Shown here one piece after another: positions 1 through 46,440 of a stretch of 64,000 nucleotides of DNA. Each line of letters starts with the position of its first letter. Position 1 is the first letter of the stretch. This DNA comes from a virus. Below the pieces are notes generated by a model, which ran no database searches, was not told where the DNA came from, and worked only from the letters and a program-made list of their open reading frames with translations. Location of the stretch: the IMG/VR virus record IMGVR_UViG_3300031416_000001. The stretch is one strand, 5' to 3'. The position numbers were made by a program, and so were the translations under genes.

Positions 1-136
1 AAAATCGACTCTACTTAATGGGAGCGGATATCCCTCATTCCTACGAAGAAGAGTTCGAAACCGGTTGTACCCACTTTATCAAGGACTTTCTCCACATTAA
101 CCAACTTAAAACCCTGATCGGTTTAAAGGGCGATGT

Positions 137-556
137 ATGGCAAATAAAAATCAAACCTTTGCCTGGAAACCACTGGCAGCTCTCAATGGTATCCCCGTGA
201 ATCAAGTCTTTACCGTTAAGTATGGGTTTCCGCCAGAGCTTAATGAGGAGCAGTTAGAGGTATTGAAAATCCTGGTACTGAATCGTATAGATTCTATAGT
301 AACGGGCCAATCCTTTAACCGTGACACAGCAGCTCTGGTCCTTGCCCATATCACGCCCAGTCAATGGGATCTGGAGCATGGCGGAGTCGATACCTTTTAC
401 CGTCGTGAAGCCAGCATAATCGATGAGATGTTCAGCGACGTCGAAGATGATCCGGCATATCGTTCTACCCTGGGAGATTTATCTCGATGTCGACCCTCGA
501 ACTTCAAAGTGCAGTTGATCACGGAGAACCGGATTTATCTGGAGCTCCAGTTTTAG
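137..556 (+). CDS. hypothetical protein, 139 aa
   Basis: Track ORF. ATG is preceded by AAGGG 6 nt upstream. The last ~70 nt overlap the next ORF and use rare codons (cga tgt cga). Confidence 0.55.
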   Translation: MANKNQTFAWKPLAALNGIPVNQVFTVKYGFPPELNEEQLEVLKILVLNRIDSIVTGQSFNRDTAALVLAHITPSQWDLEHGGVDTFYRREASIIDEMFSDVEDDPAYRSTLGDLSRCRPSNFKVQLITENRIYLELQF

Positions 557-567
557 GCGAAACGGTG

Positions 568-870
568 ATGAACATGATGATGCAGATGTATCATCATGCC
601 AAGAAAGAGTTCTTCTTTCCAACCACGTTAGCCACCAAAGAAGTTAAGACCGTTGAAGGCATCGCTGGCGGCACCAAGGTCGTATTAAAGATCTGGGTCG
701 GTCGTAGCGCTCGCCACGGCATGGAAGAGGTGTGTTGTCGTATTAACGCCACCCCAACCATCGGCTGGGACGGCACTAACTTTGAACAAGAGTTCCTGAC
801 CCACTCCCTGGCCCTGTTCTCGGACATGACCGTTAAGAGTGACAAAGACGGTATTTATTACGTTTGGTAG
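568..870 (+). CDS. hypothetical protein, ~100 aa (track ORF 487..870 trimmed to the first ATG after the upstream stop)
   Basis: In-frame ATG at 568, 12 nt after TAG 554-556. Followed by hairpin 886-917. The true start (487 vs 568) is unresolved. Confidence 0.5.
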   Translation: MNMMMQMYHHAKKEFFFPTTLATKEVKTVEGIAGGTKVVLKIWVGRSARHGMEEVCCRINATPTIGWDGTNFEQEFLTHSLALFSDMTVKSDKDGIYYVW

Positions 871-885
871 TACCCCTCATACTTC

Positions 886-917
886 TTACTACGTCTGCCG
901 AAAGGTGGGCGTAGTAA
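886..917 (+). terminator. hairpin terminator (GAAA loop) followed by a second small GGTTC-T6-GAACC hairpin at 923-938
   Basis: A 12-14 bp stem ACTACGTCTGCC/GGTGGGCGTAGT (with G-U pairs), then a U-rich tract. Lies just after the stop at 870. Confidence 0.6.
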
Positions 918-1057
918 TATAAGGTTCTTTTTTGAACCGAAGAATTTGTGATGCGTGCACACGCAGGTGATAAGGATATTTTCTAACCGTATCAAACAAA
1001 TAATTATTTTTTTACGGTGAAGTAATTTTCTTACAACCATACGCATTTCCAAATTCT

Positions 1058-1091
1058 AAAAACAGCCTGAGCTGGATAGAAAAACAGCCTG
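1058..1091. repeat. 12-nt direct repeat AAAAACAGCCTG x2 (1058-1069 and 1080-1091)
   Basis: Exact repeat read directly from the sequence, with 22-nt centre-to-centre spacing, inside an AT-rich intergenic region. Confidence 0.8.
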
Positions 1092-1312
1092 GCAACTCGG
1101 GAGATTGACACATGCACGAAAATCCTCTTTGGGATTATTATAATAATGGGTAGTTGCTACTCAAAAGGCAACACCCTCTAGTTTAGCATATCTAGAGTTT
1201 TACGCTCAAGAAAGCTACGCATTTTTCCTACTTAGGTAGTTACACACAATCGTTCTTTAAATGGAAGTTACAAATAGCAATTCCAACTAATTACATTAAA
1301 GGATCAACGACC

Positions 1313-2194
1313 ATGCCTAACAAAGATTATGAATCTGCTTTGAAAGAGTTCCAATCAACCCATAACCAAGTGAGCGATTTGCTGACTCCGGTTGAATACG
1401 CTCGTTATCAGATATTGAGTTATCCTGACAACGTATCCATCCTGAATACAGCATTGAAGAAGAAATTAGCTCTGGATCCAAATTATGAAGTATGGGTGCC
1501 AATCCACTACTATAAGTATTTAGTACTGGACACGGCGAAAGGTGTCTCAACGTTCTACACGAAGTACGCGTTCATTAGTAACAAAGGCAATATCCACCAC
1601 ATCCGTAAGAAAACCAAGGCGCCACAGGGCCATACCACGCAGAGCGGTCACCAAAGCTCACTGGTACGTTTAATTGATGGTCCGGTTCGCTTCTCTTTAC
1701 ACCGCGCAGTTGCTTGCAGCTTCGTCCCACTTCCAGAGAAGTTTAAACATGTTGGTCACGGTTATGCCCAGGTTAAGCACCGGGATACCGACAAGGCGCA
1801 CAACGACTTCATGAACCTGGAATGGGATTCCAACGTAGTTGAACAAGAAAAGGACTTGCCGTCGGCTGTTATCCAATCCGCCATTCATCATGACCATTAT
1901 GGCATCCGTCCATTAATGGGTGAAGTCATCATCCCTGGCGAACACTTAGGTGTACGTTTCATTCGCTCTGGCGATCGCGAGATCACAGACCTGCTGGGGA
2001 CATCTGGCCTGGTTGACATCGACGAAGTTCTGCGTAATAAGGTGAAAGAAGCCAACGGCATTCGCTGGACGCCTGCCACCGACTCCGATGTTATTGTCTA
2101 TGGTACTTCTGTCATACCGACTTCGCTGGTAAGAATGCTCAGAAACTATCGCGATACCCGTTCCAACCGTGAGGCTGGCGCTATCCGCGTATAA
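1313..2194 (+). CDS. NUMOD4/HNH_3-type homing-endonuclease-like protein, paralog 1 (HNH distal half missing)
   Basis: NUMOD4-like EVWVPI..YAFISNKGNIHHIRK. HNH-like HRAVACSFVP..VKHRDTDKAHNDFMNLEW but no SEN..H. One C-terminal NUMOD1-like HTH repeat (GVRFIRSGDREITDLLG..ANGIRW). Paralogous to the next two ORFs. Confidence 0.7.
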   Translation: MPNKDYESALKEFQSTHNQVSDLLTPVEYARYQILSYPDNVSILNTALKKKLALDPNYEVWVPIHYYKYLVLDTAKGVSTFYTKYAFISNKGNIHHIRKKTKAPQGHTTQSGHQSSLVRLIDGPVRFSLHRAVACSFVPLPEKFKHVGHGYAQVKHRDTDKAHNDFMNLEWDSNVVEQEKDLPSAVIQSAIHHDHYGIRPLMGEVIIPGEHLGVRFIRSGDREITDLLGTSGLVDIDEVLRNKVKEANGIRWTPATDSDVIVYGTSVIPTSLVRMLRNYRDTRSNREAGAIRV

Positions 2195-2215
2195 CCCTGA
2201 GATGTGACAAGTTTC

Positions 2216-2239
2216 TCCCTGCTCCTTCGGGGGCAGGGG
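2216..2239 (+). terminator. hairpin terminator (UUCG loop)
   Basis: CCCTGCTCC-TTCG-GGGGCAGGG stem immediately after the stop at 2194. Confidence 0.6.
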
Positions 2240-2275
2240 TCACTTTCCTTGATTCCTTAACCCGGGAGAACGTTC

Positions 2276-3661
2276 ATGGACACGAAAAAATATAACAGTG
2301 AATTTAAGAAATTCATTAAGAACCATAATCAGCTTTCTGATTTACTCACAGCCGAAGATCTGAAGCGTTATCACGAACTCGACTTTCCTGATAATGTGCA
2401 GATTGTCCATGACGCGCTGCTGGCTAAACTGAAAGAGGACCCTGAGTACGAAGTGTGGGTACCCGTTCGCTACTTCAAGTATCTGCTGCTCAATACCGTC
2501 ACCGGTGTTAAGGAGTTCTATACCAAGTATGCGTTCGTCAGCAACAAGGGTAACTTGTACCACCTTCGCAAGACACCGCAGTTAGACGTCAACGAAGATG
2601 AAGACGAATATCAGCAAAGTGTCGTGCAGCTCACGGATGGGCCCGTTAATTTCTCAGTGAACCGTGCTGTAGCAACCAGCTTCGTGCCGCTACCCAAAGA
2701 CCTCAAAGCCTACGGGTACTACGCGCTTGAAGTGAAGCATCTTAATGACCGTAAGGGTGATAATGATTTCCGCAATCTCCAATGGTTCGCGGGTAATCAG
2801 AATGACCAGACCGTGGTCGACGTTCCTAACGTGACACCAACTGTGCGTGAAGACAAGGCTGTGGGTCATACGGTTCAAGTAGCAAGTGACAAGGAAGTGA
2901 ATCTGCTTTCTATTACAAGCAGTTCTGGCAGTCACCCCGAGCAGTACCATATCCGTCCAATCATGCTGGAAGTAATGATTCCCGGTGACTATTACGGCGT
3001 TCGTCTTATTCGCTCTACACCGAAAGAGCTGGACGATCTCTTAGGTCCAGGGATGTCATCTGCTGCTGAACATGCCGCGAGCATGAACCTTACCGTGTAC
3101 GGTTGTCGCTGGAGCTATGCTACCAACGATGAGATCGCACAGTACGGCGCATTCCGCGTACCGGCCAAGCTGCGTACTCTGTTACATGAGTTTGCTGCGG
3201 GTCACTGCATGAACATCGTGGGGACACGCGTAGCGGACGGACACATGATCCTGATTGAAGGGGATCCATTGGAAACGGAACATCTGGGGTTGAACTACTC
3301 GGATATCCTGAAAGTTTGTGATGGCGAAGAGGAAGTCCACAAGGGCTATACGTTCCGCCGTGTAGATGAGGAAGAGATGTTGCAGGTGCGTACTGCGATT
3401 GATCTCCAAAATACCCTGACCTTCCCCCCGGAGGCGCCGACCGTGAACTTCATCATGGGAAAGCGGATCTCGGATGGACACCTTATTCTGCTTTGCACTG
3501 ATCAGGAGATAGAACTGTTGGGATGGGATCCCAAGACGGTGAATAAGGCTGCACGTAAGAAAGGGTTGCCGGTGTACGGCTATGAGTTCGAACGTATTAC
3601 TGACGACCTCATGGCGCTGAACCTGCGTAACCTGATTGCTACACAGATCACCCAGTTCTAA
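2276..3661 (+). CDS. NUMOD4/HNH_3-type homing-endonuclease-like protein, paralog 2 (HNH distal half missing, three HTH repeats)
   Basis: EVWVPVRYFKYL..YAFVSNKGNLYHLRK. NRAVATSFVP..VKHLNDRKGDNDFRNLQW. Repeated modules GVRLIRS..YGCRWSY, DGHMILIEG..HKGYTFRRV and DGHLILLCT..VYGYEFERI. GGAGAA RBS. Confidence 0.7.
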   Translation: MDTKKYNSEFKKFIKNHNQLSDLLTAEDLKRYHELDFPDNVQIVHDALLAKLKEDPEYEVWVPVRYFKYLLLNTVTGVKEFYTKYAFVSNKGNLYHLRKTPQLDVNEDEDEYQQSVVQLTDGPVNFSVNRAVATSFVPLPKDLKAYGYYALEVKHLNDRKGDNDFRNLQWFAGNQNDQTVVDVPNVTPTVREDKAVGHTVQVASDKEVNLLSITSSSGSHPEQYHIRPIMLEVMIPGDYYGVRLIRSTPKELDDLLGPGMSSAAEHAASMNLTVYGCRWSYATNDEIAQYGAFRVPAKLRTLLHEFAAGHCMNIVGTRVADGHMILIEGDPLETEHLGLNYSDILKVCDGEEEVHKGYTFRRVDEEEMLQVRTAIDLQNTLTFPPEAPTVNFIMGKRISDGHLILLCTDQEIELLGWDPKTVNKAARKKGLPVYGYEFERITDDLMALNLRNLIATQITQF

Positions 3662-3673
3662 TTCTGCTACTAC

Positions 3674-3705
3674 TATAACCTCTACCCTTGCAGGTAGAGG
3701 TTATA
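3674..3705 (+). terminator. hairpin terminator
   Basis: 13-bp stem TATAACCTCTACC / GGTAGAGGTTATA with a 6-nt loop, followed by a T-rich tail. Confidence 0.7.
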
Positions 3706-3727
3706 TATTTCTTTATCGGGATTTATT

Positions 3728-4792
3728 ATGGGCATTAGAAATACAGTTGACGCGCTCGACAACTTTAAAAGAACACACGATTTGGCAGAGAAGCTATTAA
3801 CGCCTAAAGATCGTTTCATTTATTATACCAAGGACTTTCCAGAAGACGTGGAGTTCCTTTACCCTTTCTTAAAGAAAGCACTGGAGGAGAATCCCGAATT
3901 AGAAGTCTGGGCGCCTTTGTGTTACTTCACTTACGTAGGCACAGGTACAAGTAAGCGCCAAGGATTAACTAAGACACCTTACGCATATATCAGTACCAAG
4001 GGCAACATTTGGCATCTAAGGAAACCAACCAAGGCAGGAGGCGGTAATACTTCAAGCAATGGCTATCAACGATCAAGATTTAGAACGGTTGATGGCGTAG
4101 TTCAATTTGCAATTCATCGTGCTGTAGCCTGTACGTTCATTCCTCTAACAGAAGAACAGAAAGCCATCGGTTACGAAAACCTCCACACCAACCATAAGTC
4201 TACGGATAAACAGGATAATGGTGTGTTGAACTTGGAATGGATGACACATTCTGAGAACGCCCAGCATGGTGTGGATAACAACGCCCGTACTTATCTCAGA
4301 GGCCTTGATCATTACGCTTCTAAGCCGCTCTTAGGCGAGTGCATGATTCCAGGTGAATACGAGGGTGCCAAGTTCCTAATCGCCGGTAAGGAAGCCTTAG
4401 ATGCGCTCACAGACGGTAATGCTCAGTCTTGCCTACAAGCAGCTGACGGTAAGTTCAAACAAGCCAAAGGGTGTAAGTGGAAACACGCTACTGAAGAGGA
4501 TATTGAGGAATACAAAGACTACGTTATTCCTGAAGAGATGGAACAGCTTATCTTCAAGTACAACTCTAACTGGAAACAACCTATCATTGCTACTCGTTTA
4601 ATCGACGGTCATCTTATCCTTATTAAAGGTGGTCCGAAAGAACTGGCGGAACATGGCTTCACCTATCAAACGGTTTACAGTGTTTGTAGTGGGAAGAAGA
4701 GTGCGCATAAAGGTTATACTTTCCGTAGAGCTGAAGATGAGGAAGAAGTTAAAAGGATAGAAGTATTAATCGCTAAGCAGAATAAGAAGTAA
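3728..4792 (+). CDS. NUMOD4/HNH_3-type homing endonuclease, paralog 3 (complete HNH motif)
   Basis: EVWAPL..YAYISTKGNIWHLRK. HRAVACTFIP..TNHKSTDKQDNGVLNLEWMTHSENAQHG (full H-N-N-H, nt 4193-4267). Two NUMOD1-like repeats (..AKGCKWKHAT and DGHLILIKGG..HKGYTFRRA). Confidence 0.75.
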   Translation: MGIRNTVDALDNFKRTHDLAEKLLTPKDRFIYYTKDFPEDVEFLYPFLKKALEENPELEVWAPLCYFTYVGTGTSKRQGLTKTPYAYISTKGNIWHLRKPTKAGGGNTSSNGYQRSRFRTVDGVVQFAIHRAVACTFIPLTEEQKAIGYENLHTNHKSTDKQDNGVLNLEWMTHSENAQHGVDNNARTYLRGLDHYASKPLLGECMIPGEYEGAKFLIAGKEALDALTDGNAQSCLQAADGKFKQAKGCKWKHATEEDIEEYKDYVIPEEMEQLIFKYNSNWKQPIIATRLIDGHLILIKGGPKELAEHGFTYQTVYSVCSGKKSAHKGYTFRRAEDEEEVKRIEVLIAKQNKK

Positions 4793-4797
4793 AGATC

Positions 4798-4821
4798 CTC
4801 TACTCCCTTGCGGGAGTAGAG
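4798..4821. terminator. bidirectional hairpin terminator between convergent genes
   Basis: CTCTACTCCC-TTGC-GGGAGTAGAG. T9 run downstream on the + strand and a U-rich flank on the - strand. The stem core is shared with the hairpins at 36606 and 55052. Confidence 0.75.
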
Positions 4822-4839
4822 TAATCTGTTTATTTTTTT

Positions 4840-6138
4840 TTATCTAAAGGCCTGATCCCAGGCCACTGCGGAGTTTGATGTTCCGGATATGTGTGATGAC
4901 TTCATCCTCAAAAGCATAAACACAGTAGCTGTACGAGACACCGCAGCAGGCAGACGGGTTGCACTGGCACCCAAACCCTTACCGGCACACGTCTTACAGT
5001 AGTCGCCCTCTGGCGTTAAGCAGAACTGCATTGACCGTACAGGAACGACCTTGCCTTCATACTTATTCCAGTTGTCCTTGGTGATCATGACGTCTTTGCC
5101 GTTATCAATGGTAAAGCAACCCAGCCACAGTTTCTTGTTAGCAGGGTACATCATGACCATCTCGCCGACTTTAACGCCACAGTTATCTTGGACAACACGT
5201 TTGGAACCCATGATGCGCAGGATGTCTTTAACCCTTGCACCACCCTCACCGGTGGCCTTACCACGGTTGTACGCGCCTTCGATCGCCGTGTTGATGTAGT
5301 CCACCATGTGACGTGGGTCCCAACCTTTGGTCAATGGATCAACCAATGGCACCCAGGTATTGGTTTCAGAGTTATACTCGATACCAAACATAATGAACAT
5401 ACGTTTACGACAGTTACTGACGTAGCTCTTGTCGATGTAGAACGTAGCTGACTCACCTTTCATCTGGATTTCATAATCCAGGTTAACACACTGCTCAACG
5501 ATGTCGTTAAACACCAGAGGATCAGACAGGCGGTCTTTGTTCTCTTTCAACAGGCGGTTCTTGAGATCCACCACTTCTTTACTGACAGTCAGCGCATCCT
5601 TAGACCCACACTTCACGATCGCGTAGAGAATGCCTTCTAGGAAGTTAGCGTTCTTGGAGATCTTCAGTACGTCACGTACCGGCGCCTTACCTTCGGGAAC
5701 CGTTTCCCCTTCGGCTGGGTCATCCACCATGATGTCAGCAATAAAGTCACGGATCAGGCCAGGAGTGAGTTCACGGTTCTGATAAGGAATGACTTCACCC
5801 ACGGCTTCCCAGAACATCACTACGTTAAACAGGAAGATACCAAAGGTCGTGGTCATCGCTTCGCCACGTAATGCGGCGTGGAAGTCCCCTGGCATATCGA
5901 TAGTGTCTGCCATGGTAAACACAGGCTCTAACACATCACCTTCTAACGTATGCTCCACACCTTCGTGGTCATGGAACTTAAAGGTTTCCCCCTCAATCCA
6001 CACCGCATAGGGCCACTTAGATAAAATCGCCTTGGACTCTGCATCTTCGAACCCAATGGTACAAACTGACAGCATCCACTCTTTACGTTTATACGCACGG
6101 TGAGCGAACGCGGCTTTTAAGAATTCAAACTTAGTCAC
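4840..6138 (-). CDS. RNA polymerase beta-prime-like subunit fragment (region E/F bridge helix through trigger-loop helix 1), 432 aa
   Basis: TTFGIFLFN resembles E. coli RpoC [54 protein letters not shown] resembles [96 protein letters not shown] resembles [46 protein letters not shown]. No DFDGD motif is present. Confidence 0.75.
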   Translation of the reverse strand: [432 protein letters not shown]

Positions 6139-6140
6139 GT

Positions 6141-7049
6141 TTAGTTCCCCGCAGGTAAGTTCAGCGATTTGACAATAGACTCAATACGAATTAACGCAGT
6201 GAGGTCATCAAGACGCCCGTCGAAGTAATTCAACAACGCTTCCTTTATACGGTCGTCATTGAGTTCACTAATCATATACAAGGAAATAACGTTGCGTCCG
6301 TATTCGATGTAACTTTCCAATGTATCCTGTTCCAGCAACACCCGAAGTTCATGCGCAAAGAAATTCAGGTAGTTTTCTACCGGTGAACCCAAGCCACCAC
6401 CGTTACGGACGTGCTGATAACCCAGTGAACCGTCCAGAACATCTTTAGCTCCCACAACACGCTTGATAATGTTGTCAGGTGGAATGTCCTGGTTGTCATG
6501 ACCGGTCAAGGAGGCACAGATAGTATCCAGGGTCACTTCAGACACATCATCCAGTACACACTCCAGTTCAGAGATGTCTGGCTCTTCCGTATCCGTCATG
6601 GCTTTGGTGAATGCATGGATGAAACGGTACTTGGGGTGAACGTCAGTGGCCTGCAGCTGTGGATAGACAGTTGACATGCTGTCTTCAATTAACGTGACCA
6701 CGAAAAAGAAGTCGGCAATGTCACACAGTAAATCAAGGTGGTCAAGTTCTAAATAATCATTATTTAGCGTAATGCCCATCTTATTGATTATGTCCCTTAT
6801 GTTGTCGTAAATAATTTTACGTAAGGCCATACTGCGCATATTCGAATCAAGTTGCTCATCAACGACCAGCTCGATGATTTGTGTGCTCACCAAAGATTCA
6901 GGAAACGCACGGAAGACAATAGCGAGTCCTTTTTCAAAGAGTTCTACGTGCGGCTCGGGAATAGTTTCCATGAACTCGTTCCAAACGTTACCGCAATGAT
7001 CGATAACCAAATCTCTGTTTATCAGAATGGTATTGTTCACCATTGTCAT
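6141..7049 (-). CDS. hypothetical acidic protein, 302 aa (first gene of the operon containing the beta-prime fragment)
   Basis: Long ORF ending 2 nt before the start of 4840..6138. No motif recognised. Confidence 0.8.
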   Translation of the reverse strand: MTMVNNTILINRDLVIDHCGNVWNEFMETIPEPHVELFEKGLAIVFRAFPESLVSTQIIELVVDEQLDSNMRSMALRKIIYDNIRDIINKMGITLNNDYLELDHLDLLCDIADFFFVVTLIEDSMSTVYPQLQATDVHPKYRFIHAFTKAMTDTEEPDISELECVLDDVSEVTLDTICASLTGHDNQDIPPDNIIKRVVGAKDVLDGSLGYQHVRNGGGLGSPVENYLNFFAHELRVLLEQDTLESYIEYGRNVISLYMISELNDDRIKEALLNYFDGRLDDLTALIRIESIVKSLNLPAGN

Positions 7050-7083
7050 ACAGTTAACCTTTTTATTTAAAGAGAGTCATAAC

Positions 7084-7791
7084 ATGACCCAGAAATTAAG
7101 TGATAAAATTCATGCGGATCGTTTGAAGAAACGTGCAGCCCGCGACGCAAAACGCAACAAGCCAAAGAAAGTGGCTGGTCACGCCCGTGTTCGCCAAGAA
7201 CGTGTTGAGCGTTACACCAACAATGCCATCGCAGGTCTGCTGGCGCGCGGTCAGGCTGTAAACGGTCGTGAACTGGCTATCGGCGACGTTATGCAGATGA
7301 TTAACCACACCATTGAAACCAATGCGGGCGTTGGGTCTGTTGTTGAAACGCTGGAGATCCTGGAGCGCGAAGGCAAGCTCGTTATCTCTGAAGAACTCCG
7401 CACCACCATCGATGCGTTCGATCACGATGTGGTTCGCTTTAATGAGAACGCCGAAATCATCAACATCGCACTGCAAGGTGAAACCAACCTGCTGGGCGTG
7501 CCGCCTGAACTGCTGATGGATACCGGTTTCCGTTCTGACAGACTGGTCACTGAACTGTGTCCTAAAATCATGGCTGACGCAAGCGAGTTCACCGCGCCAG
7601 TTGAAACCTACCTGAAAGAACATTATCCGAACCAGAACTACCGCCAGATTATGTTCAACATCGCACTGACCCGCTTAGCGCGCATTGCGCCGAAGTATGC
7701 CACTGCGCGTAATGCTGAAGCAGAAGAAGTCATCTGTGAAGATGAGGCTGCTGATATCAACCATACTCTCGATAATCGTGAGGAAGTATAA
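7084..7791 (+). CDS. hypothetical protein with a basic N-terminus, 236 aa (track ORF trimmed to ATG 7084)
   Basis: ATG 7084 avoids overlap with the divergent gene. Strong preferred-codon bias. TAATG stop/start overlap with the next gene. Confidence 0.75.
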   Translation: MTQKLSDKIHADRLKKRAARDAKRNKPKKVAGHARVRQERVERYTNNAIAGLLARGQAVNGRELAIGDVMQMINHTIETNAGVGSVVETLEILEREGKLVISEELRTTIDAFDHDVVRFNENAEIINIALQGETNLLGVPPELLMDTGFRSDRLVTELCPKIMADASEFTAPVETYLKEHYPNQNYRQIMFNIALTRLARIAPKYATARNAEAEEVICEDEAADINHTLDNREEV

Positions 7792-9521
7792 TGTCTGACG
7801 AATTAGATCAAAAGATTGCTGCCGCTGCGGCCGCCGCGCAACCTGTGGATCAGACCCCGGTTCAAAAGAAACCGGTTACGCACCAGGACATCCAAACCGC
7901 AGAGAACACCGTTGCGTTTGATATCCTCCCCCCGCGTTCTCAGGTCACAGGTCAGTTTGATAAAAATGCCCCAGGCACCGTTTACATCAACGGCTTTATC
8001 GGTCTGAACAAAGACTCGTATGATCGTGTGTCAAATGAACAGGAACTCTGGCAGAACTACATCGCTGCTCAGCAGATGGGCATGATGTCGGACAAAGAGC
8101 TGCAGAAAGAAGGCGTAAGTCGTTCACAGATTGCTGCTCAGCTGGCCGTGTGGGAAGAGTACGTCGCCAAGAACATGCCGGATGTTGATATCGCTGTAGT
8201 GAACGAGCGTCAGCGTACCATCTTTGCATTCATCACCAACCTGGCGGACCCACTGCTGTTGCATTACCCTATCACGCGTGAAAAGGGTTTGACCAACGTC
8301 ATGCAGCGCACCTCCTCGCTGGCCACCGGCGGTCTTAACGGTTTAGTGCCAAGCCGTGATCGCGGTAAGTTCAGCCTGAGTGATTACATGCGTCGTACTG
8401 CACTGTCAGTAAGCAACGACCCGTACAACTATGACCTGCTGCTGCGCAACTCTTTCCTGGCGTTCCGCTTTGCTAAACCTGACCGTCTGGAAGCGGGTGA
8501 GCTGATTGCTAACGTTGCGAAAGCCGTGCGTGGTCACGTTCGTACGGTTTCTCAGAACCTGCCTGCTCTGGCTAACATTGCGGCGATTCGTGAAGTCTGG
8601 AAGTTCATTTGTAAGAAGATCATTATGTGTTCTACCAAAGACACCAATGACTTCGATGAGCTGGCGGATATCATTCGTATCACTGACATCAACGTCATGG
8701 GCGCTGCCCTGCTTGAGCTGTTCTATCCTCAGGGTGTGAACTTCAACCTGCACTGCCTGGCGAAAGACAGCTGTAACTGGTCAAGCCAGGACGTTATCGA
8801 TCCAAGCCTGCTGACTATTGATCGTAAGTGGCTGGATACCGCAGAAGAAGCGGCTGCGCTGGCGAACATGAACAACTTCTCTCGCAAGTATTCTCGCGAA
8901 GAGTCGCTGGCGTTCATCGACAACACCAACTACCAGCACGATATCGAGCCGGTGTGGAACGAGCAGAAAACTGCCTGCTTTATCCTGGGTGTGCCGTCAC
9001 TGACCGAAAGCTTTGAAGCGGAAGAGTTCTTTGCCAACATTGTGCAGAAAGAACTGAACACCATTCGCGAAACCTCAATGACGGAAGAAGAATATGTCAA
9101 CCGTCGTGAAGAGTTCCTGAATGGCCTGGTCGGTACTGACTACCTGCATTACATCGCTGAATACCGCATCATGCCGCCGGCGGGTACTGACGGTGAACCG
9201 GTGATCCTTCGTCGTCGTGAAGAAGATCCAACTGAGTTCAACAAAGGTATCCTCAAGATCATCATGGAAAACGACGTGATGGCAACGAACCTGGTAGCGG
9301 CTGTGATCAAGCACTATCCGTTCATGAGCCGTACCTTTGTGGGTCTGGCAAACTATGCATGTGAAAACTGCAAAGGTCAGAGCGATGCCTATGAAGACCT
9401 GGGCTACACGCCTATCAACATCGTGTCGGCGTTTTTTACCCTAGCCAACCTGATGTATACTGGACGGTCGAAGGTTGGCGAGAATGCAAGGCAAGAAGCC
9501 CTCTCGGGACTTTCTCGATAG
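7791..9521 (+). CDS. abundant-type hypothetical protein, 576 aa; speculative nuclear-shell (chimallin-like) candidate
   Basis: Very strong preferred-codon bias. Low-complexity N-terminus (AAAAAAAQPVDQTPVQKKP) and a flexible-looking C-terminus. Translationally coupled to 7084..7791. No diagnostic motif, so the assignment rests on size and context only. Confidence 0.3.
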   Translation: MSDELDQKIAAAAAAAQPVDQTPVQKKPVTHQDIQTAENTVAFDILPPRSQVTGQFDKNAPGTVYINGFIGLNKDSYDRVSNEQELWQNYIAAQQMGMMSDKELQKEGVSRSQIAAQLAVWEEYVAKNMPDVDIAVVNERQRTIFAFITNLADPLLLHYPITREKGLTNVMQRTSSLATGGLNGLVPSRDRGKFSLSDYMRRTALSVSNDPYNYDLLLRNSFLAFRFAKPDRLEAGELIANVAKAVRGHVRTVSQNLPALANIAAIREVWKFICKKIIMCSTKDTNDFDELADIIRITDINVMGAALLELFYPQGVNFNLHCLAKDSCNWSSQDVIDPSLLTIDRKWLDTAEEAAALANMNNFSRKYSREESLAFIDNTNYQHDIEPVWNEQKTACFILGVPSLTESFEAEEFFANIVQKELNTIRETSMTEEEYVNRREEFLNGLVGTDYLHYIAEYRIMPPAGTDGEPVILRRREEDPTEFNKGILKIIMENDVMATNLVAAVIKHYPFMSRTFVGLANYACENCKGQSDAYEDLGYTPINIVSAFFTLANLMYTGRSKVGENARQEALSGLSR

Positions 9522-10633: not shown

Positions 10634-12397
10634 TTATTCTACTTCTACATCTTCATCGGTTAATGACTGCATGAACTTCGGCATCAACTCCTGCTGAACC
10701 ATGATCTCTTCAAACTTCTCAATCACGGTGTCATAGCTTGGGAAGTTAAACAGTTCTTCGCACAGCATGACCGCATTGGCTTCTGGACTACTTGCATAGT
10801 TCACGGCGATCTCACGCTGCTTCAACGGATCCTTGCCTTGAATTCGCACTACCTCAATCTGTGTGGTGTAGTTCGATACGTTCTCTGTTACCGTTGCGTA
10901 AGGATATGCCCCGGCTACGTCAACGTCCGATACCGCAGAACGACCATTACTGTAAACATCGTACAGACCATCAAACAGAATATAACCTTTACTGGCGTTC
11001 TTCTCAGTTTCCAGCAAGGCAATCCAGTCACCCAAGGTTGGCAACATGTCTGCGAACTCACTCTTACCACCGCCGGCACAACCCCATACATAACCGTTGT
11101 CACGTGCAATATAAGCAAGTGCATCGGAGATGATACGTGGCTGACTTGGATAGTTGAAGTACTCAGATGCTTTGGTCAACAGTGGGAAGGACATCGACAG
11201 ATCCAGTGTCTTGTCGTTCAGGTCTTCAATGACCCAGTTATCCTTGATGTTGTACATGGAGTAGATGAACTTGTGGTTCTTCTGCATGTGACGGTGCCAG
11301 TCCGCTTTACCTTCAATGAGGTGACTGCCTTCATCAGTATAAAGCTTACCATCCACCCCTTCACGCTTCGCACAGTCATTCAACGCGTAAGAGTCCAACT
11401 TGCCACTTGGTGCGCGCTTAATCGCATAGAAGCTCATGAAGTCAAGCCACTGCCATTTCGCCATACAACGAATCGTTGGGAACTTCTCTTGCGGTTCTAA
11501 CGGAGACTTGTCGCCATTCTCCTTGATCTTGTGTGTACGACCACGATCCAGACGATAGTGAGTAAACTCATCAGGAATACTTGGGTCACAGTAGATACGT
11601 TCCAGAGGACGACTGTCTGCGTTCAAGCCCTGTTCGTTTTTCTCCATATCGTAAGTTGCGTTCCATGAAGCCACTAAATCAGGACTCCACATATGGAAAC
11701 GCTTTACGCAGTTCTCAACAACTTGACCTGGTGTATCAAAAATCTCGTACTCAAAGACCGTGATGCCGCGATTACGCTTCTCTTCAGCAAACCGTTTCTC
11801 TTCTTCTTCAGCCAGACCTTTTAAGATCTCGTCATCAGACAACCCATCCCACCAACTACGAACAGTGGCAAAGTAAACCTTGTCACGCATGGTCACAGAC
11901 GCCATCATGACCGGCTCACCTTTCTTGGTCATGTCGGTTTCAACGTCGTAGGCCGCGACGGTAAAACGTTCGGTCTGTTGGTACTCTTCATACTTATCAA
12001 AGAAACGCTGCTTGATAAACACCGGTGCTGATTGGTCACAACCAAAGACATACGGGTTACTTAATACCTGACGCAAGTTGGCTTTTGGATCAGGAGAACC
12101 GTGTAAGACCTTGGTGATCATGTAAGCTAATTTGGCGGTGTTACTTTTAAACTGTTTGCACTTCTTGGCTTCAATATAGTCTTTCTGCTGTTTAAACTTC
12201 CGGTGCTCCGGTTTAACAATCCAGAAGGGTTGCTGGAAATTCTTCATTAAAGTGTAATCTTCACTACGACTACCGTCCGCGTGTACGTTGGTTATTTTAA
12301 TTGCGGTTAGGTCGTCGAAGCGCTCGGCTTTACTAAAACCTTGGTGAACGTGTTTACAAACACGCCCCACGATAGGCGATTTAACGGTATCTGCCAT
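10634..12397 (-). CDS. family-B DNA polymerase, N-terminal part only (3'-5' exonuclease domain plus palm motif A), 587 aa
   Basis: ExoI FTVAAYDVETD (D151/E153). ExoII WNATYDM (N246..D250). ExoIII YNIKD (Y382..D386). Motif A DVAGAYPY (D493) with the same spacing as DxxSLYPS. The ORF ends ~87 aa later, with no KxxxNSxYG or DTD motifs. Confidence 0.75.
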   Translation of the reverse strand: MADTVKSPIVGRVCKHVHQGFSKAERFDDLTAIKITNVHADGSRSEDYTLMKNFQQPFWIVKPEHRKFKQQKDYIEAKKCKQFKSNTAKLAYMITKVLHGSPDPKANLRQVLSNPYVFGCDQSAPVFIKQRFFDKYEEYQQTERFTVAAYDVETDMTKKGEPVMMASVTMRDKVYFATVRSWWDGLSDDEILKGLAEEEEKRFAEEKRNRGITVFEYEIFDTPGQVVENCVKRFHMWSPDLVASWNATYDMEKNEQGLNADSRPLERIYCDPSIPDEFTHYRLDRGRTHKIKENGDKSPLEPQEKFPTIRCMAKWQWLDFMSFYAIKRAPSGKLDSYALNDCAKREGVDGKLYTDEGSHLIEGKADWHRHMQKNHKFIYSMYNIKDNWVIEDLNDKTLDLSMSFPLLTKASEYFNYPSQPRIISDALAYIARDNGYVWGCAGGGKSEFADMLPTLGDWIALLETEKNASKGYILFDGLYDVYSNGRSAVSDVDVAGAYPYATVTENVSNYTTQIEVVRIQGKDPLKQREIAVNYASSPEANAVMLCEELFNFPSYDTVIEKFEEIMVQQELMPKFMQSLTDEDVEVE

Positions 12398-16511: not shown

Positions 16512-19430
16512 TTATAGGCTGGTTACATCGTGTTGTAAGAAGTCGACCTTGACATCTTCCTGGACGCTTGGCAATTTGTTATCGCCCAACACCAGTTTCT
16601 TGCGTACGCTGAACCCACTGAGTTCATCCACGGCTGAGATTACATCCACAGTGCTGTCACCGCTTACTGCATTGATCTTGACATCCACGACATCAGACGG
16701 CAAGTTTTCCATCAACGCTTTCACCAGAGAAGACACACCCACGGTAATGTTACCAAACAAGAAGGTATTCAGTACTTTCGGCGTGTTGTTCTTCAGTGAG
16801 GCTTTCAGGTTAGTGTTCTGATAGCCAGAGCGAGTCAGGTAGTAGGTAACCTCAAACGACAGGTCCTGACGCAGCACAGAGTAGTAGTTAGAGTTCACTA
16901 CCACTTTACGCCAACCCAGCTTGCTCTTCGGCTGATAGAGTAAACGGGTCTTGTCAATGATCTGCTGACTGAACAGGTCCAGGTCAAGACTGATGGTATC
17001 CGCCAACATGTCTTTTACCGTTTGTGCAAACGTCAAGTCATACTGATCTTTACTCAGCTGATAGACACCGTCAAAGCCCACGAAGTCCCAATGGTAGTTG
17101 AGTTCACGTGGCGCCAACTGCACGTAGTTACCTTGCGCATCCTTGACCCAATCTCCCTTGCGGTGTTTATAGATTGGACCGCCCGCATCAGTGAGCATGG
17201 CTTCACCTTTGGCGTGCTTCAGGATAGGTAGGTTATCGGGACCCAACACCATCTGTCCGTCTTTCTCTTCGTACACGTTGTCTTCATACACATCCGGGAC
17301 GTTGAAGTCATACTGCTGATACTGACCTTCTCCTACCAGAGGACGAATACGGTTGTACAGACGATCCAGACGTTTACCCAACGTTAGCTCAACATCAGTC
17401 ATGATGATAGCTTGCATTGGATCCGGGAACAGTGAGTGATCGATCATGCTGTCTGAACTGATCACTGTTTGCCACGTACCTACACGACGCAGGATAATAA
17501 AGGAAACATCCAGGTCCAGTGCAATTGGGGTATCGGGTTGAACTTTGCCATACTGACTGAAGTTAGTGATGTGGAGCTGATCACCTTCATCCACGTCCAG
17601 GTTACTTTCCAGACGGAAACGATAGACACGCTCACCTTCTTTGGTTTTGTAGGCGAGTTCGCCGCGCAGGTTAGCCGGCTCATTACTGCCCGACACCATA
17701 ACGCTTAACTGCATGCCGACCTGTTCATCTGTCAACAACTTATAGCTCTGACCCGAACTGGTTTGCGCCATGATGGTGTAACCGTTGTTCTCATACTCTA
17801 CCGTCACCGCATCGATACCGGTTTCAATTCCCAGGTTGGTGTTCTCTTCCTGGAAGCTTTGAATCCCAAACTTCGGTTTATCCAGATAGTACATGCGGAT
17901 AGCCGCCTGGTTCTGGGTAGTATCAAACACATAGTGGAACGGTAGGTAAGCCAGACTGGTGCTTTCCATGTAGGCGATTAACGCGTTATTGGTCATCGCC
18001 GCAATATCACGACGCTGTGCAGCAGTCACAATCTGAGGGACCTGCGAAGTCACGTCAAACATGGTACCCGCCGGCACCGTAACACGCGCACCGTTATCAA
18101 TGGCAACACCGGTGTTAACCAAGCCCCGGGCAGAGATCAGGTTAGTCCCCACAAAACAGTTGACTCCAGAATAGAAGTCTTTGTTGGTTTGCAGTGGCAG
18201 TTCTTTGGTTAAGGAGAACAAGCGAGACGTAACAAAGTCGATGCTCTTCACCGCCGAGTAACCGTAATCTTCAACAGAGCCGATCAGGTTGTTTTCTGTG
18301 ATAGGCAAACTACGCAGACGACGACCGTTCACCACACCGTACTTGATCTTACTGAACGAGGTTGGAATAGTGCCGCCAGAGATAGGCGTGTCAAACTTCC
18401 ACAACACACCACCCATATTCGTCAAAAAGTCAGAATACTGGTTCAGCTCGTTGTTGTTGTAGCGGTAGTCACGGTAAGCCGGGATGTAGTCAGACAGCTC
18501 GTTACCGATGAAGTCCTTGTCCACGGTACCTTTAGTGGTATAAACGTACAGCGACACCGTCCCTACGCCTAAACCGTTCTCGATATAGATGTCGGGAATG
18601 GCAAAGGAGAAAGCACTGTTAGAGGTGTCCAGGTCAATGGTCATGGTCACCGAGCCGGGATCAAACACCGCCTTGTCGTACGCTACCTGGATCTCACGCT
18701 TCACACCGTCAGACTGCGTGATGTAGGCGCGGATGCCGTACAGGTAATCAGAGTATGCGCGTGTACCCGAACAACCCGCTGCTGTGGTCGACGGAATACT
18801 GGCATCAAAGCTACAGGCGAGTTGACGAACCGGAACTTCAATAACCAGATACTCTTTGCTATTGATCGTGCGGACCTTACGCTTTAACACGTTACTGGTG
18901 ATGGCATTGAACGGGTTATTGGTGGTTGAGTCATACACCACCTGCACGCCAGTGCGTTCGTTGTAACGGATCTCGATGCCGTTTTCGATCGCAAAGGTAT
19001 AACCTGCCACATCCACTTCGGTGTCTTTCGGGATCAACAGTTTCTGATAACTCAGGTTCACCCCATTAACCGTACTGGTAGCGGTAGGGGCAAAAGCCTT
19101 GAGGTTATCCATGGAGATGATCAAGTTCATACGGCTAGCGGCAGGTGTACCAAACAAACCGTAATACTCGATGTCATTCATGTTACGCGACAGGTCAGCA
19201 ATCGAGGTTGCATGTGCCGGGAACACTTGACTGATCGCATCACTCAGCGAACTCAGGAACCCAAATCCCACCCCGATGGTTAAGTCAGCACAGAACACCA
19301 CGGGATGCGTGCCTGAGTTGATGTTGACCTTTTGATCGAACCAGGCTTTTTGAAGGCTGTCCACGACGTAGTTCAAACCACGAATCGGGTTAGCAGCCAA
19401 CTTGGTGGTTGGTGTTATTTCAATGCTCAT
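16512..19430 (-). CDS. large hypothetical virion-type protein, 972 aa (start moved to ATG 19430)
   Basis: The track start at 19442 is TTG. ATG 19430 forms an ATGA stop/start overlap with the upstream gene and has a GGGTGA RBS. No motif recognised. Confidence 0.8.
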   Translation of the reverse strand: MSIEITPTTKLAANPIRGLNYVVDSLQKAWFDQKVNINSGTHPVVFCADLTIGVGFGFLSSLSDAISQVFPAHATSIADLSRNMNDIEYYGLFGTPAASRMNLIISMDNLKAFAPTATSTVNGVNLSYQKLLIPKDTEVDVAGYTFAIENGIEIRYNERTGVQVVYDSTTNNPFNAITSNVLKRKVRTINSKEYLVIEVPVRQLACSFDASIPSTTAAGCSGTRAYSDYLYGIRAYITQSDGVKREIQVAYDKAVFDPGSVTMTIDLDTSNSAFSFAIPDIYIENGLGVGTVSLYVYTTKGTVDKDFIGNELSDYIPAYRDYRYNNNELNQYSDFLTNMGGVLWKFDTPISGGTIPTSFSKIKYGVVNGRRLRSLPITENNLIGSVEDYGYSAVKSIDFVTSRLFSLTKELPLQTNKDFYSGVNCFVGTNLISARGLVNTGVAIDNGARVTVPAGTMFDVTSQVPQIVTAAQRRDIAAMTNNALIAYMESTSLAYLPFHYVFDTTQNQAAIRMYYLDKPKFGIQSFQEENTNLGIETGIDAVTVEYENNGYTIMAQTSSGQSYKLLTDEQVGMQLSVMVSGSNEPANLRGELAYKTKEGERVYRFRLESNLDVDEGDQLHITNFSQYGKVQPDTPIALDLDVSFIILRRVGTWQTVISSDSMIDHSLFPDPMQAIIMTDVELTLGKRLDRLYNRIRPLVGEGQYQQYDFNVPDVYEDNVYEEKDGQMVLGPDNLPILKHAKGEAMLTDAGGPIYKHRKGDWVKDAQGNYVQLAPRELNYHWDFVGFDGVYQLSKDQYDLTFAQTVKDMLADTISLDLDLFSQQIIDKTRLLYQPKSKLGWRKVVVNSNYYSVLRQDLSFEVTYYLTRSGYQNTNLKASLKNNTPKVLNTFLFGNITVGVSSLVKALMENLPSDVVDVKINAVSGDSTVDVISAVDELSGFSVRKKLVLGDNKLPSVQEDVKVDFLQHDVTSL

Positions 19431-42368: not shown

Positions 42369-42384
42369 CACAAATGGAGGGTTG

Positions 42385-44064
42385 ATGCAACCGAAACTGG
42401 TAGAGGCAGTTGATGCCACAATGCCGAAGTTCAACAAGTCAATTGTTGAAGGGTTCCATCTCCGAGAGTTTGAGGGCGGATATCGTTATCTTAACTATAT
42501 CTATCGATTAATCTTTAAAGATGTTGAAAAGAAAGGCGTGATCTTTGAGGGCATCAGTCGCATGAAGCCCAAGGAATATATTGCATTCCTTCGCGGTCGT
42601 CAACCCAAGGTTTATGACACGCACAAAGAGAGCTACTACCCTGTCACCATCAATTTCTCCTGGCGCGATCCCAAGACCGGTGAAACTAAACCGTTCCCGC
42701 CAATCGTAACGATGCTGTTGTACTGCGATCGTTATGGCGATGTGTGGATCCGCGATAGTCAGTATTCGTTACAAATGGTCATGGCTGAACGTGGCCTGAG
42801 CGTAACGAAAGAAAAGTCTATCTTCTTTAAGGTATTGAGCTTCAAGACAAAGATCGGTGCGGAATTCTTCCGTTTTGATAAAGTGCATACGGAGCTGAGC
42901 AATCTGCCCCGTTCGACCATTGACTTGAACTTAGCCGCCAACCGTTTCTATAGCCCGAGTGAATCCCGTGCGATTACCAGTAAGAAAACCCCGTTCCCTC
43001 TGTTGAGCTGGTATATCTTTGGTAACTTCGGTTTCAGTGAGGCCATGCGTCTTTATGGCGAATGCGAATATGAAATTGGGCCGGTTGAAATATTGACTAA
43101 ACGTTGTCTTCCAAAAGATCGCTGGGAGATATTTACGCGTAGTGGCAGTTCCAACAACAAGTACCTGGGTGACTTTATCCCGCTGGAGTTGGGCATTGCG
43201 TTGCGTAATAAAAACGAGAAGCGCAAAGAGTTATCTAGCATGGGCGTTCAGTATGCTGCCGCACTCTTGTTTGTCATTTCGTGCATGCCGTCTTACTTTG
43301 AGATGGATGACATTGACGATAAGAACTATTGGCGTTTACTGATCGGGCGCTGTTCGGTTAAACCGGGTGACCCGAATGATTATGTGCTCCGTCTAATGGA
43401 CGAGCATTTTGATTCCATGAATGATTTGCTCGAAGAAGATTCCATTCGCAAATTTGCCAGCCAGTCTGTGTACGTGAAAGATATGTTTGAACTCTTCAAC
43501 TATATCATCGCGAACCGCAGTGAGATCGTGCAGACTACCGATCGTGGCAGCGCTCTTAATAAAGAATTGGCAAGCATGGAGTTTACCTTTGATGGTTTGA
43601 GCACACTGGCAAACCAGTTCAAGCACTTCATTAAGAACAACTCTGAACTTAGTTATCAGAAGGTCAAGAACTTCCTCACAAACAGTAGCATTAAGCTTCG
43701 TTCAATCGACAATGCGCGTTTGGCAAATATGATCCTGGAACCGACTCCAACGGATAACCCGTTCTCGGAATACATGCTCGGCGTTATGGCGCAGCACAAG
43801 GTATTTACGGGTAAAAGGAAACAAGCTTCAGGTGACTTTGACGTGCACGACACGGCTAACCTCACTAATGCGTCAATGGCCTTTGTCTTCAGTTATCAAC
43901 GTGTAACCAAACCTGATCCAGATGCTAGAGGCTTCTTAGCCCCTTGTGTGTATACCATTAGTGGTAATCTCACTGGCATCCGAGAGGAGCGGCTTCCGTT
44001 GGCTGGGGCCACGGAGACGCGTTTGAAGATAAGGGAGTCACGGACGTACACTCAACAGGATTAA
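42385..44064 (+). CDS. RNA polymerase beta-like subunit, N-terminal half, ~559 aa
   Basis: [24 protein letters not shown] resembles E. coli RpoB [43 protein letters not shown] resembles [37 protein letters not shown] (nt 43306-) resembles [47 protein letters not shown] resembles NNPLSEITHKRRIS..AGFEVRDVH..RVCPIETPEGPNIGL. No beta C-half motifs are present. Confidence 0.65.
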   Translation: [559 protein letters not shown]

Positions 44065-44067
44065 AGA

Positions 44068-46440
44068 ATGGCACTCGCACCCCGCTATACAGCATCAGTA
44101 CAACCAACTTCAGCACCAACTGGGCCGGGAACCCAGGGCGCTAACACGGCTCCAGGGCAACAGGATGCACTGGGTCTGGTAAAACAGTTGGTTCGTCAAT
44201 CATCACAGGCCGCTAGTTATGATCCTGTGTATAACAACATTTATGAAGACAAAACACTTCAAGAGTTCAAAGAGCAATCTTCAGAAGGCAGTGAAGATCA
44301 GATTAACTATTTCCGTCAGCATGCGGCGGCGTGGATAGTTCAGTTTGTTCAAGAAGCGAAGATCTATCGTCATGGGGTGATGTACGCTACCTTCCGTGAC
44401 ATCGTGGAAAACTATCCTTCTATTCGTGCAGTGAACAGTCATGTCAAAGCTGAGTTCATTAAGTTCTTGGTGGGACGTAATGATTTACTGGACGTAGTTG
44501 CAATTCGAACCTCGGTGTGGTTTGGCTTTATCATGGCGAAAGTGATTAAAGACGCCAATGGCCAGCCGCCTCGTCAAGCTGTACTGCATTCAGTGCGTAC
44601 AGCGACCGAGAACATCTTGAATCTTGAAATTGTTACCTGGCTGAATGGGTCTAACAAAGCAGCGGCTTTCTTGTATTCGCCGACGCCTGAGATCCAGGAG
44701 CTATTGAGCAAGTTCAACATGCGCAAAGATGCAGCATCAAAGGTATTCCAGTTCTTCGAGGAATCCTCGCCGTATGACGCTGCTAACTTCTCTGGTGAAC
44801 GCATGAGTGAAGGTAACATTACCAACATTATGCCAGAGGTTGCGCGTGTGGGCATGGATCAACGCCTGCCTGCCAGCAAGAACAACGGTATGACGGACAT
44901 GACAGGAACTTATGTACCGGATTACCATGATGGCATGGCTGCAGAAGATCGTGAGCTGTTACGGATATCGTTCGATCTGATGCGTAAAAACAATCAGACC
45001 CCGGGCTTTACCAATCAGCCACCACCTCGTGCTACACAACGGGACAGTTATGATGATTTGAATATCTACGGAACGAGCGGTCAGCGTTACCGTACGGATA
45101 TCGAAAACATTGATATCCACAATCGCCACCTGTTTGACCTGCGCAGTTACTTTACAGCAACGGCGTGTGAAAACTGGTGGACAGTAAAAGAGGGAGATTG
45201 GACATTCCTCAAACGTGCTATGAAACGTCGTGGCGGTATTCGTGCTGAAGATACAATCGTTAAAGGCTGTATTCGTTTTGTTGAATATGACTTTGACCAC
45301 GAGAACTCGTTCCCAGGATGGAGAACGCGAGCCATTCGTTTCACCAACCAAGCGGAAAAAGATATGATCTTGTCTGATCCTGCTAAACTGCTGCCTCACC
45401 TGGATGTGGATAGTTTCCAGAACAAGGTTGTGGTATTGCCGGTCACCGAAGCCAAAGCGTTCTTTGATGAAGAAGGTCGCAAGCTGGGTGATGATGCGGA
45501 AGTGTTTGAAAAGCTGCGTGAACCAGGATTTGAATTCCGTGTTATTGATACTGAAGACAGCATCCGCACCAGTTATACCAAGGACGTGTACGATCGCATG
45601 ATTGCTTCCGGGACTTCGATTGCTGAAGAAACACAGAAGCCGTTAGCGATGTTGGGTGAGTTCGACATCACCGGCCGGTTCATGTTCGAAGATCGTCAGT
45701 CTCGTGATGCAGTCGTGGCCAAGTTCCCAATGGTGTTCCATGGTTACGAAGGCAATGCTGACAATTCTTACTTTGGTATCATCGAATCGATTGCGCGTCA
45801 GTTAGGGCGTACACCGATTGATGATGAGAACACGCCGGAAGGCCATCGCTTTGATACATTTGTAAGCGGTCGTCTGACGATGGATCTCAATGACTGGTTG
45901 GTAAATGCAGCGGGTTATTCACTTAATCCCAAAGACGGTGAGTCGCTGACTGTGGACAACATTCTGCTCGATTACAACGAGTTGAAGACTGTGTTGTTGC
46001 AGACGGATAAAACCGTGTATGACATTTTGAATCAGGTTGGCCCTGACAGTTTGGTTAAGTCTCTTATCGAGATGTTTGATCGTCCTGTTACACCTGCTGA
46101 AACAATGTCACCGGTTGATCGCGAAGAGCACGCTATGTCGCTTATTCGCTCTCGCCACTATCGCAGTATTGTGATTCACAACGAACCTGGTCCTAAACCA
46201 ACCGTTGGTAAACCGATCACTCTGCGTCGCAGTAACAACCCCGAGTTCTTTACTCTAATTGACACCTTGCGTGCTCATGTTCAAGGTAAAGGCCAACAGC
46301 TCGAAACACAAAGCATCTTAATGATGTATAAATACACCAATGACCTGTTCATGGTGACGCCGACTGTGTATGATGAAAACGTGTTGACGATCCGTACGGT
46401 GAAACCATCGCGCACATTCCTCAGTCCGGCCTTTGGGTAA
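44068..46440 (+). CDS. RNA polymerase beta-prime-like subunit, N-terminal/catalytic part with a DFDHE loop (tentative), 790 aa
   Basis: Matches to E. coli RpoC are collinear and sit at similar residue numbers. IMPEV (254) resembles LPVLPP (250). [14 protein letters not shown] (297) resembles [30 protein letters not shown] (339) resembles [31 protein letters not shown] resembles LNRAPTLHRLGI. EYDFDHE (aa 408-412, nt 45289-45303) resembles [16 protein letters not shown] resembles [32 protein letters not shown] resembles [25 protein letters not shown]. Confidence 0.5.
   Translation: [790 protein letters not shown]

Follow-up and report, generated by a model that had tools for sequence, protein, structure and literature searches.

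An uncultured jumbo phage encodes a probable Mid-beta-prime subunit of a phiKZ-type virion RNA polymerase

The window analysed here is a stretch of 64,000 nucleotides from the IMG/VR virus record IMGVR_UViG_3300031416_000001, and its subject is an open reading frame (ORF) of 432 amino acids on the minus strand at 4840-6138. A reading of the DNA letters (the original prediction) had described this ORF as a free-standing fragment of the beta-prime subunit of RNA polymerase, one that begins at region E, includes the bridge helix and a cysteine segment and stops at the first helix of the trigger loop. Profile alignment, a match to phiKZ gp74 and a structural search with Foldseek all uphold that description, and we put at about 0.93 the probability that an uncultured phiKZ-like jumbo phage (Chimalliviridae-type) encodes, in this ORF, the Mid-beta-prime of its virion RNA polymerase. 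Conservation is given throughout for 38 homologs of the 432-amino-acid protein, which make up alignment A1 and the family profile. The locus contains the following features.

4840..6138, minus strand: predicted Mid-beta-prime gene of the virion RNA polymerase, 432 amino acids, ortholog of phiKZ gp80, SPN3US gp42 and EL gp44
5206..5298, minus strand: bridge-helix segment, residues 281-311, placed by alignment with RpoC 772-805
4987..5181, minus strand: Zn-II cysteines C320, C373, C381 and C384, placed by alignment with RpoC and invariant in A1
4882..4947, minus strand: trigger-loop helix 1, residues 398-419, with M412, K413 and H416, aligned to Escherichia coli 919-939
4798..4821, no strand assigned: GC-rich hairpin of 10 bp, terminator-like on both strands, found by terminator scan and direct reading of the sequence, between the convergent beta-prime and HNH genes
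1313-2194, 2276-3661 and 3728-4792, plus strand: three tandem, paralogous HNH endonuclease genes (PHROGs 17657, 59 and 959)
6141..7049, minus strand: upstream gene of 302 amino acids, PHROG 5038 (E 3e-43), function unknown in PHROGs

The ORF opens with a GTG codon 2 nucleotides past the TAA of the upstream 302-amino-acid gene, a Shine-Dalgarno-like GGGGAA stretch precedes this start, and the N-terminus coincides with Met-1 of the homologs. At the other end, 16 residues lie between the trigger-loop histidine and the C-terminus, not the 13 codons that had been counted by eye. GC content is flat at ~47-50% throughout the window. A megablast search of positions 4000-8000 against phage genomes returned zero matches, so that at the level of DNA the phage is not close to any cultured relative.

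When the family profile was aligned with E. coli RpoC, a single colinear alignment joined residues 18-424 to RpoC 480-944 (hhalign, E 0.031) and recovered all of the anchors named in the original prediction, whose by-eye alignment from TTVGRAILW onward therefore holds. The anchors pair as follows.

Region E: TTFGIFLFN 97-105 in the ORF, TTVGRAILW 572-580 in RpoC
Bridge helix: YINTAIEG...ILRI 281-309 in the ORF, 772-805 in RpoC
DDCG turn: VQDNCGV 316-322 in the ORF, DDCG 812-815 in RpoC
Zn-II site: C320 in the ORF, C814 in RpoC
Zn-II site: C373, C381 and C384 in the ORF, C888, C895 and C898 in RpoC
Trigger-loop helix 1: M412, K413 and H416 in the ORF, M932, R933 and H936 in RpoC

Eight bridge-helix residues (N283, T284, R292, T296, G299, G300, V303 and K304) are invariant among the homologs, and an AlphaFold model of the ORF has helices at 275-296 and 299-311 in this segment. 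The Zn-II cysteines also align with the matching cysteines of phiKZ gp74. In trigger-loop helix 1, M408 and H416 are invariant and the conservation of M412 and K413 is at least 90%, with lysine (K413) at the position of the E. coli trigger-loop arginine (R933). The fold of the ORF is that of bacterial RpoC, and region E, the bridge helix, the Zn-II site and the trigger loop follow one another in both proteins alike, whereas the ORF is without the DFDGD region, N-terminal clamp, SI3 and C-terminal regions of the E. coli protein; the missing DFDGD region had been noted from the start, and there is indeed no D.D.D motif in the 432 residues.

When the whole of the PDB sequences was searched with the family profile, phiKZ gp74 (7OGP chain D) was the sole match (E 1.5e-4), with family residues 315-415 falling on gp74 283-382, from the DDCG turn past the Zn-II cysteines into the trigger loop; with hhalign, the alignment of the family to gp74 extends over residues 73-422 (gp74 13-389). 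The AlphaFold model has a mean predicted local distance difference test score (pLDDT) of 80, and Foldseek returned 246 PDB matches with it at E<=1e-3, of which all of the 50 matches listed are RNA polymerase entries matched on their beta-prime chains; identity to cellular beta-prime in the structural alignments is ~14-16%. Among the matches listed is the beta-prime of phage AR9 (PDB 7S00 chain D, E 1e-6), a C-half that likewise comes from a split phage beta-prime but belongs to a non-virion enzyme of a Bacillus phage, carries a trigger-loop insertion domain and is longer. In a Foldseek search of BFVD, orthologs of 413-436 amino acids rank first and phage proteins of 630-700 amino acids follow, the named ones among the latter being annotated as RNA polymerase beta or beta-prime. 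The homology of the ORF to beta-prime exceeds chance.

The ORF belongs to PHROG 2962, its residues 1-431 matching profile positions 1-432 of 433 (E 1.1e-125). By tblastn this family is found in 305 phage records, 286 of them covering at least 80% of the query, and all 305 are jumbo phages having their own multisubunit RNA polymerases. The nearest isolates by tblastn are Erwinia phage RisingSun (49% identity) and Pseudomonas phage EL, whose gp44 is 46.5% identical. To phiKZ gp80 (449 amino acids) the identity is 24% over ORF residues 17-416 (blastp E 1.4e-29); the phiKZ record labels gp80 a "structural head protein", as it does the neighboring gp79. On sequence comparison the ORF is a full-length ortholog of phiKZ gp80, SPN3US gp42 and EL gp44, alike in length class, start and end, motifs, upstream partner gene and full-length profile match, and unlike them in sequence identity only; at the level of the locus, three HNH endonuclease genes have been inserted downstream. 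Membership of the family, orthology, the motifs and the end point are all observed in this genome itself.

The presence of the family in virions and in the polymerase complex is known from relatives of this phage. SPN3US gp42 (431 amino acids) is the "beta-prime M" of a virion RNA polymerase, and in virions of a gp241 amber mutant it is gone together with the other virion-polymerase subunits (PMC5105663). A 2020 review describes the virion enzyme as an assembly of five polypeptides, with beta-prime in three pieces (N, Mid and C) and beta in two (N and C) (PMC7598289). In phiKZ, gp80 co-immunoprecipitates with gp180, gp178 and gp149 (PMC10612078), and all five virion-polymerase subunits were found in Goslar virions (bioRxiv 10.64898/2026.04.21.720040).

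The check proposed with the original prediction had implied a different enzyme, the non-virion (middle/late) RNA polymerase, of which the ORF would be the beta-prime C-half. The region from bridge helix to trigger loop is common to the ORF and the non-virion subunit phiKZ gp74, including a homologous run from the DDCG turn through the Zn-II site to trigger-loop helix 1. However, the blastp E value to gp74 is 7.8, as against 1.4e-29 to gp80, and non-virion C-halves are ~650-690 amino acids long and continue through the trigger-loop insertion and a C-terminal module (PMC7618050); gp74 has ~290 residues more than the ORF, comprising the trigger-loop insertion at 396-533 (PMC7618050), trigger helix 2 and the C-terminal module. 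Further, this genome has a gp74 ortholog of its own, beside a gene in the helicase position and a beta-like gene. Identity with the non-virion subunit is extremely unlikely, and the ORF is the virion-copy, gp80-type gene. The genes that bear on the second polymerase, two of them in the window and the others outside it on the source contig (L006), are listed here.

42382..44064, plus strand: non-virion beta-like subunit, ortholog of phiKZ gp123 (phmmer against PDB; PHROG 2943)
44068..46440, plus strand: protein of 790 amino acids resembling JADA/phiKZ gp124 (Foldseek match to 9rp3, and position)
L006 17633-21299, strand of the HNH genes: non-virion polymerase block, ~1.5-5 kb beyond window position 1
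L006 19193-21202: gp74 ortholog of 669 amino acids, a beta-prime C-half with its own bridge helix (7ogp_D, E 2.4e-37)

The 669-amino-acid gp74 ortholog lies ~3 kb beyond the left end of the window. Its block also contains a gene of 701 amino acids with a weak RNA_pol_Rpb2_6 match and one of 514 amino acids which, by position, corresponds to the phiKZ gp75 helicase, so that the gp74 ortholog has a helicase-position gene and a beta-like gene as neighbors, as in phiKZ. The product of 42382-44064 has only 7ogp_E (PHIKZ123) as a phmmer match in PDB (E 1.7e-12) and falls in PHROG 2943 (E 2e-132), labeled simply 'polymerase'. The claim that the genome encodes two RNA polymerase sets stands; because 42382-44064 is the gp123 ortholog, the gene of the second set that lies in the window is beta-like, not beta-prime.

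That second set had originally been placed at 44068-46440, taken for another beta-prime with its own bridge helix. Searches of Pfam, PHROGs, the sequences in PDB and the annotations of phages gave this 790-amino-acid ORF no RNA polymerase match; it belongs to PHROG 13213 (function unknown in PHROGs) and reaches only E 0.15 against the beta-prime family in a profile-profile comparison. Its GKGQQLETQSIL segment (residues 740-751), which had been likened to a trigger loop near the end of the protein, shows poor conservation across the homologs of this protein and is without an equivalent of the Met/Arg/His residues. Foldseek with a model of the protein, which is of low confidence (pLDDT 54), matched only 9rp3, at E 1e-4, which is JADA of phage Pa36; the 50 matches listed include no polymerase. 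Because the model is poor, the JADA identity leans also on gene position: the JADA/phiKZ gp124 gene lies directly downstream of gp123 (PMC12931631), and 44068-46440 likewise lies directly downstream of the gp123 ortholog. We rejected a beta-prime paralog at this position on the lack of polymerase signal, the E value of 0.15, the JADA match and the unconserved GKGQQLETQSIL; on its model and position the protein looks JADA/phiKZ gp124-like, and it is not an RNA polymerase subunit. JADA/phiKZ gp124, a trigger of the Avs5 defence system, is an essential protein made early (PMC12931631).

A beta-prime ORF that stops inside the trigger loop could also be a truncated gene, or one exon of a longer gene split by the adjacent HNH genes, an intron, an intein or a frameshift. 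Three HNH endonuclease genes do lie directly downstream, the gp71-73 subunit of phiKZ is annotated as separate genes on either side of gp72, and introns and a homing nuclease have been marked in phage RNA polymerase genes (PMC5105663). The HNH genes, however, lie on the strand opposite to the beta-prime gene and run toward its 3' end, and two contigs ~99% identical to the window (L008 and L009) are without bases 3717-4828, that is, without the third HNH gene and its hairpin, yet encode the identical 432-amino-acid protein. EL has no HNH genes at this locus and its beta-prime ends at the same point. An Rfam search of window positions 1-7200 found no intron, and no minus-strand ORF continues below 4840. 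Because 72 of 74 database homologs are 430-446 amino acids long (the PHROG profile itself has 433 positions), the end of the ORF is the natural terminus of the family. The constant length of the homologs, the spread of the family over 305 phage records and the empty intron and ORF searches rule out an exon of a longer gene, which the original prediction had named as what would speak against it, and leave a split or truncated gene next to impossible.

Related hairpins follow the second and third of the HNH genes (3674-3705 and 4798-4821), and because L008 and L009 are without 3717-4828, the third gene with its hairpin is a free-standing homing-type cassette that shows a presence/absence polymorphism. 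A weak homolog in phiKZ (tblastn E 6e-4) is gp179, located between gp178 and gp180, two genes of the virion polymerase.

Several observations weigh against a Mid-beta-prime of the virion enzyme. Pfam RNA_pol_Rpb1_1 to _5 gave zero matches at E<=1 for the ORF or any of the 38 homologs, and the direct profile-to-RpoC score is marginal on its own. Searches within the window for gp176-, gp178- and gp180-type orthologs found none, and the genes for the four partner subunits are not confirmed on the phage's own contig. The profile of the gp176-type family gave no significant match to PDB, gp74 or RpoC (E 0.3-0.5). Finally, the virion location of the protein is known from relatives only, not from this phage. 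Since Pfam is empty and the RpoC score marginal, the beta-prime assignment rests on the link to gp74 and on the fold; the profile check that accompanied the original prediction thus came out negative in Pfam, weak against RpoC and positive with the gp74 profile match and Foldseek. Single-sequence phmmer of the ORF against PDB also found nothing. Judged by Pfam alone, the prediction would literally have failed, and PHROGs, the PDB profile search and Foldseek were needed.

The two ends of the protein fall at two breaks in beta-prime. The first, after the catalytic barrel, is cyanobacteria-like, the cyanobacterial gamma/beta-prime split being the same N-terminal split (PMC7598289). At the second, the family profile aligns with gp74 to about residue 389, and the trigger-loop insertion occupies 396-533 in gp74 and, as SI3, 942-1129 in E. 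coli (PMC7618050), which places the last residue of the ORF at the insertion site in the trigger-loop tip. A lineage-specific insertion, beta-prime In6, has been placed "immediately after a16", and in SPN3US the far-C part (Lane-Darst regions a17-a20) has been assigned to the 240-amino-acid virion protein gp244, a homolog of phiKZ gp176; the sequence-profile similarity behind the gp176/gp244 type was only E 0.05 in that paper (PMC5105663). Both breaks, past the active site and inside the trigger loop at the insertion point, had been proposed from the sequence and both are supported here. They are also in the literature: the three-way split of the virion beta-prime into N, Mid and C is already published and nothing about it is new, and it is only for these phage virion enzymes that the same papers report the second break, the one where the trigger-loop insertion sits (PMC5105663, PMC7598289).

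The far-C piece can be traced in relatives. In RisingSun, the nearest isolate, a gp176-type gene follows a large gene whose annotation is RNA polymerase beta subunit. In a related JGI contig of 231,788 bp, the gp176-type gene lies between a gene of 1438 amino acids and a Peptidase_S80 prohead protease gene, the arrangement of phiKZ gp178 to gp175. Members of the gp176-type family are present in 277 phage records, and the spread of hosts is the same. Two weak alignments of this family both place residues ~40-55 on the helix-2 segment just past the insertion (E. coli GGLPRVADLF), which is only suggestive of a role for it in supplying trigger helix 2. Because the gp176 profile tests are not significant, identifying the far-C piece depends on genetic and proteomic data from SPN3US (PMC5105663). 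That the gp176/gp244-type partner is not a true beta-prime C-terminus seems to us unlikely; if it were so, the virion enzyme would run with trigger-loop helix 1 only, and helix 2 and the clamp hinge would be replaced by a non-homologous protein or by nothing. More likely, the trigger loop is built in trans from two chains, with the break at the site where the paralog carries its insertion domain.

As a Mid-beta-prime, the protein would supply the secondary-channel side of the active centre, with region E, the bridge helix, the Zn-II cluster and trigger-loop helix 1, the last carrying the Met/Lys/His residues that would contact the incoming nucleotide. The catalytic DFDGD barrel would come from a separate N-beta-prime of the phiKZ gp180 type, and a third protein, the C-beta-prime of the phiKZ gp176/SPN3US gp244 type, would probably supply trigger-loop helix 2 together with the C-terminal clamp hinge; two beta-like proteins would complete the core. 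From the relatives and the literature we infer that this protein assembles with the four other pieces and that the five-piece enzyme would be packed in the head, injected with the DNA and transcribe the early genes.

A beta-prime-derived virion protein might instead have left catalysis altogether and be, for example, structural, or injected with some other function. The extreme divergence from cellular beta-prime, seen in the low identities of the structural alignments, would be in keeping with this, and we know of no biochemical reconstitution of a virion polymerase. Such a role is nonetheless very unlikely, given that the residues important for catalysis and folding, namely the Zn-II cysteines, the Gly, Thr and Arg residues of the bridge helix and the Met, Lys and His of the trigger loop, are invariant or nearly so. 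Further, loss of the beta-N subunit of SPN3US removes Mid-beta-prime from virions (PMC5105663), and early transcription in phiKZ is independent of the host polymerase (PMC13282480).

The genes around the ORF are those of a phiKZ-like phage. The upstream gene at 6141-7049 abuts the beta-prime start and is translationally coupled to it, and this pair is kept in EL (gp45/gp44) and phiKZ (gp79/gp80). Because blastp of the 6141-7049 protein against phiKZ gp79 was not significant, it is equivalent to gp79 and EL gp45 by position only. The protein could be a virion-polymerase-associated factor. The SPN3US gp241 mutant, however, loses along with gp241 only gp37, gp42, gp158, gp218, gp240 and gp244 (PMC5105663), and since these losses do not include it, such a role is without support. 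Further hallmark genes of jumbo phages in the window are as follows, with several virion genes.

10634-12397, minus strand: DNA polymerase (PHROG 3011)
16512-19442, minus strand: protein of 976 amino acids, in size near phiKZ gp87 (PHROG 3248)
36652-38205, minus strand: DnaB-like helicase (PHROG 3213)
38880-41141, plus strand: phiKZ-type major head protein (PHROG 3231)
13837-35263: several genes for internal-head or virion proteins

From 4840 to ~27000 the gene order resembles phiKZ gp79-gp97 by size and annotation.

The original prediction was a careful reading of a very diverged sequence and largely correct. Beyond annotation the finding has little significance, since both the enzyme and this subunit of it are known. 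A family without a solved structure gains a divergent sequence, one that is at most 49% identical to any isolate. More generally, it has been published since 2016 that a multisubunit RNA polymerase can tolerate a broken chain at the trigger-loop tip. For the phage itself, the gene identifies the window as coming from a jumbo phage of the phiKZ-like kind, with its own, presumably injected, RNA polymerase.

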